DNA from: Syncephalis fuscata S228
Taxonomy: Eukaryota; Fungi; Zoopagomycota
NCBI GenBank assembly: GCA_025786725.1
Contig: JAHLTZ010000002.1
Span: 558,001 to 622,000, forward strand
Length of the DNA stretch: 64,000 nt
Direction of reading: 5' to 3'
Positions 1,193 through 6,700 of the stretch are shown here, piece by piece. The notes below the pieces were generated by a model. That model was not told the origin of the DNA. It saw only the letters and a list, made by a program, of their open reading frames with translations, and searched no databases. Numbering within the stretch: position 1 is the stretch's first letter; each line of letters begins with the position of its first letter. The position numbers and the translations under genes were made by a program.

Positions 1193-1641
1193 GCTGAGCA
1201 ATTTATTTAAAAAGAGGGAAATATGTTATTTAGTAGCTATTAATTAAATTGTAATGATTTGTGAGGTGAAAAAATACAATTAATTGCCACAGTTAGCTGT
1301 GGGTGTTGAAAAGAAAAAGAAAAAAGCTTATGTCCATATTTGGTAATATGAATTATCCAATTCTTTCAAAATTTTCTTATAACTAAAGAACTGGCTGACT
1401 ATATTCAGTATTATATTCAAATGATAGAAATATTTATATAACTAATGGATTTTCTTGAAAAATAAAACACATTCTTTTAACATTTCTTTTTTACGTTACA
1501 TGTTTATAAGTGCTACGTTTATTTGCTTGAACAGTATAACTCATACAAGTTGGTAATTCAAAAATATAAACTTTTACAGCCACAGCTAAAGTGCTATATT
1601 AACGAATAATAGTTTGTTTATAATTATCAAATAGTGCTAGT

Positions 1642-3743
1642 ATGGATGTTAGCAGAAACAACATTGATAAACGCGTGGTTTCAGCAGAGGAGGAGGGCCT
1701 GCGCTTGCATCAATTCTTACGGCGCAACTATCCAGAACACTTCTCGTCTAGACGGCGTTGTATTGTAGCCATTCGTGCAGGCGAAATACATGTTAATGGA
1801 GCAATAGCTGAAGAGACGCGTATAGTGCATTTTGAAGATAACGTTGAGGTGTATGAAGATGTGCACTTGTCTGCTATACGAGAACTAGAACGGCTTTGTG
1901 TTACTGTTCATCATACTACAACGCCCGAGACAGTTTGCGACGCATCAAATAAAGCTACCCAAGCAAATTCATGGTCATTTTCTGTGGTATGGAAGCCGGC
2001 TGGTGTAGCAAGCCAAGAGATAGAGCTGATAGACACCAAAATAAGAACTTGGAAGGGAGATAATGTAGCGTTTAATACACAAGCCATCTACTGGATAGAA
2101 AAATCGGCTAGTGGCTGGGTAAGTAATGAAGAGGTAATGTATCATTCGTACTAAATAGTGTTGTATTTTATTCAGTTAATATTAGCACGTAATTTGGCAA
2201 CATTTAATGCACTTCAACAGCAATTAGTTGGCGGTGAGATGCAGTGTCAATTTCGTGCACTGTGTAAAGGCAAAATAGCGCCAGGTATTCCAGGTGCAAC
2301 CATTGAAATTCCACTATCGTCCCTCGATAGTATTGAGCCAAACGATAACGATGATATCAAGAAAAATGATGATATGGCAGATTGCACTAATATTCTTGCT
2401 GTTAATAGCAGCACAACGACTTACGATTCTGATGCTATTCTTATCCACGTTGCAATACCTGTTCATGGACGAATTGTAAATATATCGGCAAGCAATAGTG
2501 CTGGACATCTCACAACGATTGACACATGGCTTGATATACAGCGTGGAAGCTGTGACTCAAATCAGCAAATGTCAGAATGTACTACTGCAAAAGCAGTGCA
2601 AATCAATGTTTTGACAAAAATAGGCGCTATTGGTCGGTTTATACGTCGTGCTCTCGCTTCTATTGGGCATCCAATTATTGGCAACGTTCGTGGATCAGAG
2701 GCTTTACCATCTGGACGTGGCAAAGGCTATATGCTATCGCTAATAGATTTGAAATTCCAGCATCCAAGCCAAGACAGCACTTTGGATAAAGAGCTGCATT
2801 TTCAGCATGAAGAGCCTAGCAAAATGACGGCAGTTCGGGCACGTGAAGAACGATTTAGAGCACAAAGGCGTGTATTAGAAGCAGAGGATTTAGCACTTGC
2901 TGGTATGGAATTAAATGAATTCGATACTAGCGAGAAACATACGCCCATTGCTTATGTTACTGGTGAAAAGGTACAATAGTTTATTACAGCTGCAGCCTAT
3001 TTATACAATGTCATTAGAAATTTTGCTCTTTACGATTCCAAGTCACCAAGGACACGCTAATTCCACGAATCAGCACAGAAACGCTGGTATCAGCTGCTTT
3101 ACGTTGGATACCTCAATGGCAGCAACCAGACTCCCTGCCAAAAATTATGGATATTGGCACAGGCTGTGGCTGCCTATTGATTTCTGTTTTGAATGCGGTA
3201 CCAACGCTAACTGGCGTCGGGATTGATTTATCCACCTCAGCATTAGCTGTAGCCAATGCCAACGCTAAACGTTTGTTAAACAGCAGCAGTTCAGAAGTGC
3301 GCTACAAGTTTCTGCAAGCAGACATGCTGCAGCTTGATCAGCCACACGAGCTGGCAAAATTTGAACCGAAAGAAGCACCAAAATCAGATGATGCTATCGA
3401 TGCAGTATCATGCACAGCGCCATTCACTCATGTTATTTGTAATCCGCCCTATTTAACCGAAAAACGCTACCAGCAGCTGTCTCAACTGACTGCAGAACCG
3501 GCTATGGCCGTAGTAGGAACAGACGAGGACGGACTTGGTGCCTATCGCGCACTGGCTAGCGTACTGCAGTCGGATCAATTGCTGCAGCCCGGTGGTCTAC
3601 TCATTCTTGAGGTAGGCCATGGATTGGCTTATCGTGTTGAAAATAGTATATTTGCATCATATGGCATATGGCATTTAAAAGATCACTTGCAAGACCAACA
3701 TGCGACAGTGCGTTGTCTTGTTTTCGAAAAACGTGGAATCTAA
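1642..3743 (+). CDS. Fusion protein: S4-like RNA-binding + degenerate RluA-type pseudouridine synthase + HemK/PrmC N5-glutamine methyltransferase; exons ~1642-2118, 2176-2970, 3018-3743
   Basis: GLRLHQFL..SRRRCIVAIRAGEIHVNG (S4); VVWKPAGV, WIEKSASGW|LILAR and IRRALASIGHPIIGN (RluA motifs). The GT-AG intron 2971-3017 joins PIAYVTGEK|KFCSLRFQVTKDTLIPRISTETLV in frame to MDIGTGCGCL, NPPY and LILEVG (PrmC). Confidence 0.82.
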
Positions 3744-6700
3744 TAATTTCATGCTCAACGGTAGATGCGGCCGTCCCAAATAATAAGAACTGCTCTAGCG
3801 GTCCACGTGCGTCTTCAACTACTCCAGAAGACAATTGCTTAGATTACGGAAAGCACATGATCAGTTGTATAGCAATAAAATGATTGGTATTAGTTAATTT
3901 ATAGCACAAATAAACTAATTAATTCAATTAAATTGGCTATTCCAATGGTGGTAATAGCAAGTCACAACACAATAAATGGTACTGCCTAAAAAGGCAAGTT
4001 ACTTTTTTAATTACTGCTTGTTTAAAGGGTCGATCAATAGTATTTTAAAAATAGAAAAACAATAAACAGCGTGAATGACGAGAGAGTTCAATGGCTGCTT
4101 GGCAATGTCCGTTCCACAGAGGCTGCAGCGTGAGTTGTGCCTTGTAGCATTGGTCCAGCATAAGGTCTAGACCGATATATTAGCACGTAAATTACTGCCA
4201 ATAAACGCACTGGCAGGCCATGACGTTCTGGCCACTGCAAATAAACCATAATGCCATGAGTGCAATGCATGGAGTATTACAATTGTGAGCAATTTCATTC
4301 GCTAATATCCTGTACAAGCTGGCTAATGTATATATATATATGTGTGTGTGTGTGTGTTCTATTAGCGCCTTGACCATGCAGATAGGACGTAACAGATACG
4401 ACTGCGATTTGCAACATATCCTAAACACTTGAAAAGTCAACAATACGCTTATCCCACATTGCATTACTCGTATTCTAGCATTGCTAAACACAAAATTAAG
4501 GCCAGTTTTATTTTACAAGTAAATTCGTTGTATAAACTAGGCCAATAATAGGTGTAAAAAAACAAAAAAAAGCACAACCTTCGGAGTCAAACTTGGCTAC
4601 AAGGTAGCAATAGAATTAAGTTGCCCGATATAGTAATCAAGGCTGCATGTTAGGCACGCATTCGCACATGGAATACACTGTATAGAACGCGGTAAACGTA
4701 AAATAGTCAACGCCCGACCATGCTATTACCGCTTGAAAGCCATTTCTACAAACGAGCAAAGCTGACAAAAGCGTAGAAATTATACCGATGAGTGGACATG
4801 TCTGTGCTTTGCCACCAGAAAAGACCGAACGAGCCGGGCGCCACTTTTAGTACTCAGTAGTCACTATGGATTTCCTTTTTGCCTACTGTCCCGTACTCCG
4901 ACCACTCCAAAAAAGCCCCTGAGCTCGTGTTTTCCTACCAAATGCCACGCGGATCCCATGATCTCCGTGCATGGTGAATGTTTAAATAATACAGGTTTGC
5001 TTCCACATTTCATGCCTGCCATAGTCCCTCACGTCCGGTTGTCGTCGTTACTGTCGTCGCCGTCTGAAATCCTATATTATTGCCGCGCTTCTACCTTTCC
5101 ACACCTATTGCGTTATCTTTTTGTCGTTGGCGTTCAGCTTTTATTTCTAGAATTATCTTTATACAGCAGCGTAAACTTGGTGTTACCTGTTATTTCTCGC
5201 TATTCTTACCATTTCTCGGCGTAGCTTAGAGACAGTACCGGTTTTCTTATCCTAGTCTACTTTTTATGTCAGCAATTTAAAGCTACATTTTTCCCGTATT
5301 ATTATTATTATTATCACTGCTATTATTATAATTTTATTATTTATATTTGCGTTAGTAAGCGTCAGCGTGCTAGAATCTCTAGATAAATCTTGGCATTAAT
5401 ACGGTAAGCTTCCCAAACAATTGAGTGATGGCATAGTCGCCATTTGGTCTGGATCGTATGATTTTGCTCAGCCAATTAAATGAACTGTATGAGTATGCAA
5501 ATTGTGATTTATTTATATCGGTAAAATGGCTATGTAAGCAGTTTTTATAATGTGTGTGTCTTAATTCAAGATGCTTGCTTTCAGTATTTGCTGCATGTCG
5601 GCTATGTTGAATTTCCCATACTTGGCACTGACGCTGCACAGCGCCCCAATGGGCAGCACATGCTCCTATTATCGATTGACAGCGATAATACAATGGCTTG
5701 GGAAGTGCATTGTTCGGGGCATGTACACGCTGTATTTGAGTGCAAAACACTAGACTTGGCATAGACAAATGTATGTACACAGGTCGCCGTCTTGCCTAAC
5801 AATACACTTTTCGGATCTAAGCGCCAAAGGCAGTACTAGAGCTGTAATCATTGTGATGTATAATTGGTGCAATGTAAACAAAGACCCGATTAAAAATAGA
5901 TTTAATGTATTTGTGTAAATCTATTATTTTACAAAGAATAGCGTCTCCCATTTTAACTTTATCAATGGCTTCATTGACAAGATAATGGACACAAATAGCT
6001 GCTGTTTTATAATAGTCGTAAAGTACTTGATGACAACGGTGTAGTTGATCATTCATTTGTATATATTCCCACATACACATATATATACATGTGCAATTAC
6101 ACGTGTACATTCGGCTTTACTAGCAAGCGGCCGTCAACAAATTCTATTTTTTACCTTAGGCTTGAAACTACTGACCGACATCCGGGGCATGCACTTTTAT
6201 TGGTTAACTAAAGATATGCAACGTCAAATGCATTGCCTTGTATGTCTTCTATAATAGCTATTTTTGTTTTGTGACATATGTGTATTCTCGGTATATTTAC
6301 TTTACTAGTTCACAGCCGTTGCCAATACGTAGTACCCATAAGATAGAATAAGTTCAAGGTGTTCCTTGAATAAACAAATGGGAATGCTTATACAAAGTAG
6401 CTTATTTTGTTTTTAATTCACTATACGTATTTAAATCCTCTCTGTTTAAGACGCAATAGTCTTTACAGCCTACATTGTCGACACTTTAATCCATTTATCT
6501 TTATTGCCGTCCATCTTTTCAAACCATTTTAGCTTGTACAGGCCGTAGATTATCTGTTTTCTTTATTTCTCCTTCCTTCCCTTTTCTTTCTTTCAATTGG
6601 TGCCTGTGCTTGTGTGTGTGTGTGTGTTCTACTGTATGTAGAACGCAGATCATCTCTTTCTAACCTGACATGCTGTTTGTGGCACGGCTTGTAACACTGA

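Follow-up and report, generated by a model that had tools for sequence, protein, structure and literature searches.

The question raised by this locus is whether a fungal gene joins an RNA-modifying fold to a HemK/PrmC methyltransferase, and what such an enzyme would act on. The locus lies in a stretch of 64,000 nucleotides from Syncephalis fuscata S228 (assembly GCA_025786725.1, contig JAHLTZ010000002.1, positions 558,001 to 622,000 of the forward strand; referred to as the window). From the letters alone, an earlier note had proposed for positions 1642-3743 an in-frame fusion of a probably inactive RluA-like pseudouridine synthase with a HemK/PrmC methyltransferase. The analysis presented here shows that the fusion gene is real and forms one spliced transcript unit. 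By score and motifs its product belongs to the HemK family and fails the tests for PrmC, for PrmB and for an active RluA/RluD synthase. The reading that we favour, tentatively, is an RNA-docked glutamine methyltransferase that would act on some protein outside the group of release factors.

Splicing of the coding exons 1642-2118, 2176-2970 and 3018-3743 in phase 0 (all coordinates are window positions on the plus strand unless stated otherwise) yields a frame of 665 amino acids plus stop, 1998 nucleotides in total, with zero internal stops. Both introns, 2119-2175 (57 nucleotides) and 2971-3017 (47 nucleotides), begin with GT and end with AG. A single contig of 2203 nucleotides from run X1 spans positions 1457-3823, that is, the whole fusion gene, and jumps exactly these two introns. 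The two introns and the in-frame fusion are thus confirmed, and a transcript ending between the domains, which had been named as grounds for abandoning the proposal, is not found, as one contig spans both. X1 is one run from one study and its RNA nature is presumed ('RNA?'); the splicing of the contig and the zero depth of the flanking intergenic bins, 1200-1401 and 3826-4027, are consistent with RNA. Read coverage in the form of this one contig crosses the junctions 2118/2176 and 2970/3018 as anticipated; the note had missed a third intron further upstream, which extends from 1553 to 1612 in the 5' leader (GT to AG) and is also spliced out in the contig. In the metagenome locus L028, which codes for a fusion whose product resembles by eye the member from Entomortierella, introns sit at the two codon positions where the S. 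fuscata gene has them. A gene-model artefact or a pair of adjacent genes is ruled out by the spliced contig, the intron positions of L028 and the existence of a homologous family.

Exon 3 is 100% identical to P0004, a S. fuscata protein of 685 amino acids (NCBI model), and the 665-residue frame corresponds to residues 21-685 of P0004. This model is reproduced only with a leader acceptor at 1634, which the X1 contig does not use. With the acceptor of the contig, 1612, the ATG at 1500 opens an upstream frame of 24 codons (1500-1634) and the main frame begins at ATG 1642. With acceptor 1634, ATG 1500 joins the main frame and lengthens the N-terminus of the protein by 20 uncharged residues. The two leader acceptors could be a case of alternative splicing that regulates translation or targeting. 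The contig and the window differ in single letters at 1966, 2435 and 2444, the plain reading of which is strain or allele variation. The database models P0037, P0061 and P0062 either stop where the conserved second intron begins or run on into it, and thus comprise the synthase part without the methyltransferase.

In scans of single exons the methyltransferase is clear (TIGR03534, 143 bits), whereas the synthase part is barely detected (TIGR00005, E 0.03-0.09; S4, 19 bits, below the cut-off). A family profile of 16 sequences matches E. coli RluD at 5-249 (E 8.8e-21) and HemK/PrmC at 319-559. An AlphaFold2 model built with 143 sequences has a pLDDT of 86.7 and a pTM of 0.85, with low confidence only at residues 1-21, 117-119 and 239-265; it predicts a three-part fold in a compact arrangement. 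In this model, the exon 1642-2118 contributes the S4-like domain (about 1663-1866) and the first lobe of a RluD-type fold. The exon 2176-2970 contributes the remainder of that fold with a low-confidence acidic insert, a conserved linker helix (about 2815-2898) and, from 2944, the beginning of the PrmC-like part. The exon 3018-3743 contains the beta-hairpin of PrmC, the class I methyltransferase domain and the stop codon.

A fold search, close to a check suggested by the note, showed that the model matches both RluD and PrmC. With E. coli PrmC (2b3t) a Z-score of 27.6 and an rmsd of 2.4 were obtained for 239 aligned residues (406-683 on 15-276 of PrmC). The values were Z 19.3 and rmsd 13.6 for RluD 2ist (residues 24-416), and Z 19.1 and rmsd 4.0 for the RluD catalytic domain 1qyu. 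In the model, a long helix (394-420) prolongs the last helix of the synthase fold to where the N-domain lies in PrmC, and about 35 residues ahead of the hairpin overlay part of that domain in the fold alignment. PrmC_N (PF17827), the helical domain with which PrmC binds the release factor, is listed in none of the 33 hits. The assumption that the N-terminal domain of PrmC has been replaced therefore holds in part: because the helix extends into its space, the domain appears to be reduced and partly replaced, not simply swapped.

The synthase part lacks the features of an active enzyme. The codon 2098-2100 specifies a Glu (P0004 E173) where RluA/RluD enzymes have the catalytic Asp of motif II; 8/8 RluA-family controls have an Asp at this position. 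The preceding Arg column contains a Trp and motif III is degenerate; the alignment thus agrees with the motifs that had been read from the sequence. Pseudouridine synthases are reported to require the catalytic Asp (10.1101/2023.02.23.529727). The degeneration is a property of this protein and of the family as a whole: in the 117 of 153 members that align through motif II, the Asp column contains E in 37, D in 25, G in 15, Q in 11, S in 7, P in 7 and other residues in 15 cases, and the Arg and Asp of motif II occur together in only 3/117. These three, P0030, P0146 and P0168, are candidates for residual synthase activity. The TIGR00005 score is 30.7 bits compared to a cut-off of 192.7, and the best family member tested reaches 107.

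What this shell has kept are structural glycines, the Lys of motif I, the Arg of motif III and a basic loop that follows G348, as well as a family-specific signature at 393-406 (P393, 88%; K395, 88%; F at 396, 85%; E403, 96%). Basic columns are also conserved: K138 (91% K/R), R336 (83%), K362 (74%), K395 (97%) and R402 (92%). With RluD, RluC and RluA (E. coli RluD 2ist, 1qyu, 7bl5 chain 7) the family has in common an S4 domain ahead of this fold (Z 19.1-19.3), the motif I Lys and the Arg and Gly of motif III. In contrast to these synthases, the Arg/His of motif II, the Gln of motif III and a late His motif are degenerate, the Asp is not conserved, and the C-terminal helix continues into the methyltransferase. 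The synthase part is probably a non-catalytic shell that has retained RNA binding. A trypanosome protein, mt-LAF3, is described as an RluA-family member that acts as an RNA scaffold without needing its Asp (10.1101/2023.02.23.529727), and it matches the fold. In contrast to the fusion, mt-LAF3 is mitochondrial and is not described with a fused methyltransferase.

The methyltransferase, on the other hand, has kept its core, as the note had stated. Both the SAM-binding glycine motif (3150-3170) and the NPPY motif that binds the amide or base (3441-3452) are intact. Some 30 columns of the METHYLTRANSFERASE part are near-invariant both in the family (153 sequences) and in the PrmC controls (166 sequences); these include the SAM motif, NPPY, P605, A608, Y620, E642, D670 and R676. 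NPPY is present in 152/153 members. Columns conserved to at least 80% number 40/225 in the methyltransferase and 13/275 across S4, both lobes and the linker. Because its core is under such strong constraint, the methyltransferase is very likely active. The general HemK model TIGR00536 gives 124.2 bits for P0004 compared to a cut-off of 115.5, and four of five fusion proteins pass (Seminavis, 107). None of the five passes the PrmC equivalog model TIGR03534 (P0004 159.1, cut-off 199.1), which an N-truncated HemK from Phytophthora also fails (185). Scores for the PrmB equivalog model TIGR03533 are 88-101 bits (P0004 101) compared to a cut-off of 229.7.

The beta-hairpin, the class I domain, the SAM motif, NPPY and the pocket residues are common to the fusion, to PrmC/HemK (2b3t/1t43; T. 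maritima 1nv8) and to Mtq1/HEMK1. In PrmC the five-helix N-domain is complete; in the fusion it is reduced and joined to the RluD fold, and five acids have been lost. The most prominent of these follows the IPR motif (E. coli D94) and is replaced by a Ser encoded at 3072-3074 (P0004 S463). Among the 153 members this site contains S in 107, G in 24, A in 15 and C in 4 cases, compared to D/E in 27/30, 82/86 and 77/80 sequences of three PrmC control sets. Four other columns, 469, 504, about 599 and 615, have likewise lost a surface acid; no column has acquired an acid, and one has become basic. According to a study of yeast Mtq2 (PMC3152332), Leu89 of PrmC is equivalent to Mtq2 Tyr15, the D20N variant of Mtq2 is completely inactive, and an acidic helix face that includes Asp26 is crucial for methylation of the basic GGQ region of eRF1. 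By ungapped register from this Leu89/Tyr15 pair, columns 463 and 469 would correspond to Asp20 and Asp26 of Mtq2.

A change of substrate at this site has a precedent, since P0035, which is the uL3 methylase PrmB by score (above the TIGR03533 cut-off), also lacks the acid after IPR. P0035 has 510 amino acids and a 190-residue N-extension that resembles an organelle-targeting region. PrmB, an N5-glutamine methyltransferase of uL3, resembles the fusion in being of PrmC lineage, with a protein substrate other than that of PrmC. The fusion proteins differ from it in scoring higher on PrmC and in forming a clade that excludes P0035.

N-terminal length was taken as a proxy for location in the 84 members with a Met start and an S4 hit. 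The lead-in before S4 has a median of 10 residues; it is at most 20 residues long in 60/84 and at least 30 in 19/84 members. Several of the long extensions are rich in Lys/Arg and resemble nuclear signals by eye. For comparison, the targeting region of HEMK1 is given as about 40 residues (PMC8904536). The short N-termini, which usually leave no room for a presequence, argue against routine mitochondrial import, although internal signals are possible.

To delineate the family, 1.84 billion cluster representatives (50% identity) were searched with a profile; the best 150 were taken and their parts scored with split profiles at 15 bits; 11/150 were also contained in the query profiles. The synthase C-lobe and the methyltransferase occur together in 142 of these 150 clusters, and all four segments (S4, both lobes and methyltransferase) in 82; seven contain the methyltransferase only, and in one it is missing. 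Many of the shorter cluster members may be fragments. Names are known for 24 members, a minority of the family (look-ups by cluster covered 30 proteins), and none of these 24 comes from Dikarya, an animal or a plant. There are 21 early-diverging fungi (three Syncephalis, Thamnocephalis, Dimargaris, Linderina, Mycoemilia, Coemansia, Massospora, two Rhizopus, Spinellus, Jimgerdemannia, Calcarisporiella, Entomortierella, Glomus, Rhizophlyctis, two Rhizoclosmatium, Polychytrium and Sorochytrium), the red alga Rhodosorus marinus, and the diatoms Seminavis robusta and Amphora coffeaeformis. The fungal genera cover Zoopagomycota, Mucoromycota, chytrids and Blastocladiomycota. In the databases, members are labelled 'hypothetical', 'SAM-dependent methyltransferase' or 'HemK family member 1', and these labels hide the fusion architecture.

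A tree was calculated from the methyltransferase domains of 24 fusions from across the family and 33 PrmC/PrmB rows (215 columns, LG+G4, rooted with P0035; the bootstrap had not settled). The 24 fusion domains form one clade (100/99), and FastTree places all 153 members in one clade with a support of 0.82. The fusion clade stands beside, not inside, the proteobacterial group (weak support). The AU test does not reject a clade that unites the fusions with the HemK from Phytophthora (p 0.85), the one canonical HemK of a eukaryote included. Most of the nearest prokaryotic matches (68/80) come from Alphaproteobacteria, which fits an origin in the mitochondrial ancestor. No prokaryotic fusion was found in the best 80 of 457 GTDB loci (3/64 collection parts) or in 79 of the best 80 of 576 metagenome loci (5/64 collection parts); the remaining one is the intron-bearing L028. 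This is weak evidence that a prokaryotic fusion is absent. A query of the ESM Atlas gave no cluster of the fusion family at a score of at least 0.9. Its clusters of bacterial PF00849 + PF10672 (RlmI-type) fusions, from Myxococcota, Bdellovibrionota and Verrucomicrobiota, share the domain order in outline (score 0.80, an unaligned lead). Their methyltransferase belongs to another family, and the fusion event is likely independent.

The note had called the architecture unfamiliar. No published description was found in literature searches aimed at it, which covered few subscription journals. It is not peculiar to the S. fuscata genome, as the family is widespread in eukaryotes. We consider it an apparently undescribed, old eukaryotic variant of the HemK/PrmC kind.

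How might such an enzyme work? In the mechanism that we favour, the synthase domain would no longer make pseudouridine but would still bind RNA through conserved basic loops, as would the S4 domain. The methyltransferase would be active, and its chemistry would still be N5-glutamine methylation, because the PrmC-specific pocket residues are conserved. The substrate would have switched from that of PrmC, because the acidic face that meets the basic GGQ loop is lost. The shell formed by S4 and the RluD-type fold would dock on a structured RNA or ribonucleoprotein and thereby put the NPPY site at a glutamine of a bound protein, which is probably not a free release factor; the switch would resemble that of PrmB. 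The likeliest site of action would be in the nucleus or cytosol, at a ribosomal particle or a precursor of one.

Several observations weigh against this proposal. The synthase Asp is still found in 25/117 members. The shell is moderately conserved, with a mean top-residue frequency of 0.35-0.37 compared to 0.46 for the methyltransferase, and its charge is slight (median +1 to +4 per 100 residues). In the diatom members P0244 and P0259 no S4 and only a small part of the first lobe were detected, so docking on RNA may not extend to all members. The PrmC controls are narrow, being mostly from Alphaproteobacteria (68/80), and part of the lost acids may reflect drift relative to such a control. The tree contains neither fungal Mtq1 nor animal HEMK1. 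Furthermore, NPPY is described as serving both the glutamine amide and the nucleobase amine (PMC3152332).

The last point leads to the strongest competing explanation, which we regard as somewhat improbable: an RNA methyltransferase in which the dead shell would grip a stem-loop of rRNA, tRNA or snRNA and NPPY would methylate an exocyclic base amine (m6A, m2G or m4C type). A polyanion would suit the site, around which five acids have disappeared and one column has become basic. In the fold search, PrmC is followed by methylases of RNA amines (TrmM, Z 20.5; METTL16, 18.2; RlmG and RsmC, 17.9), and the nearest Atlas clusters are the synthase-methylase fusions mentioned above, which at their score are a lead only. 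However, PrmC is by far the best match (Z 27.6 compared to 20.5), the RNA-methylase models give at most 35 bits for P0004 compared to 159 for TIGR03534, and the PrmC-type pocket columns are near-invariant. No enzyme of the PrmC lineage is known to methylate RNA, which also counts against this explanation.

Less probable still, and in our view unlikely, is a release-factor methyltransferase, either the equivalent or a duplicate of Mtq1/HEMK1, whose shell would tether it to the organellar ribosome or replace the PrmC N-domain. A factor with a GGQ motif had been among the substrates first suggested. PrmC is the best match in sequence and fold, the closest prokaryotic relatives are mostly alphaproteobacterial, the clade with the Phytophthora HemK is not rejected, and 19/84 members have an N-extension of at least 30 residues. 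The small residue before NPPY is a Cys, as in the PrmC/HEMK1 class (PMC8904536), and a connection between RluD and release factors in bacterial termination is reported (PMC3384335). The family-wide loss of the acidic substrate face of PrmC (S/G/A/C in 150/153 at the D94/D20 site) and the short N-termini nevertheless make a GGQ release factor less likely as substrate. Most members start at S4, and several of the long extensions look basic and nuclear-signal-like. No PrmC_N is among the 33 hits, and 159 bits lie below the PrmC equivalog cut-off of 199. Moreover, Mucor is reported to have a separate gene of N6AMT1 type, metA, known by its description (PMC11258239). A fold prediction of residues 95-685 together with E. 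coli RF1 gave a score of 0.00; as controls were not folded, it counts neither way.

A mainly structural or bifunctional protein, that is, a ribosome-assembly or RNA-stabilising scaffold with methylation secondary and some members perhaps still making pseudouridine, is improbable: it can draw on the mt-LAF3 precedent (10.1101/2023.02.23.529727), on 6yxx_EC and 7aoi_XP, two assembly factors of the trypanosome mitoribosome at rank 11-12 of the Foldseek matches, and on the members that retain the Asp, but the strongest constraint lies on the methyltransferase core and Arg and Asp are hardly ever retained jointly. MetB of Mucor, described as the writer of asymmetric DNA 6mA in this fungus, was ruled out as an identity by its description (a methylase of PF02384 whose target recognition domain is MmeI-like; PMC11258239), as our model consists of S4, RluD and PrmC parts.

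Returning to the RNA-docked glutamine methyltransferase, the combination of dropped synthase chemistry, an intact methyltransferase core and a shed PrmC substrate face points to a modification of the translation machinery that has gone unrecognised across a broad range of eukaryotes. In bacteria, both parents serve termination, RluD via helix 69 and PrmC via the release factor. It is conceivable, though doubtful, that the family represents an ancestral eukaryotic class in which a dead RluD shell retargets a PrmC-lineage active site to RNA itself or to a residue within the assembling ribosome, giving an uncatalogued modification. Equally speculative is the idea that early fungi, red algae and diatoms have retained this class and that it was overlooked since no yeast, animal or plant member is named. 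Genetic tools exist for Rhizopus and for diatoms, and since orthologues occur in these tractable groups, the substrate is directly testable.

A gene for a dihydrouridine synthase (Dus; PF01207) is located at 230-1192 on the minus strand, head to head with the fusion gene. A conserved pairing of the two was not seen in L028, the sole other locus read, which has different neighbours. In the window, the likely start codon of the Dus gene, 1192, is 265 bp away from the 5' end of the spliced contig.
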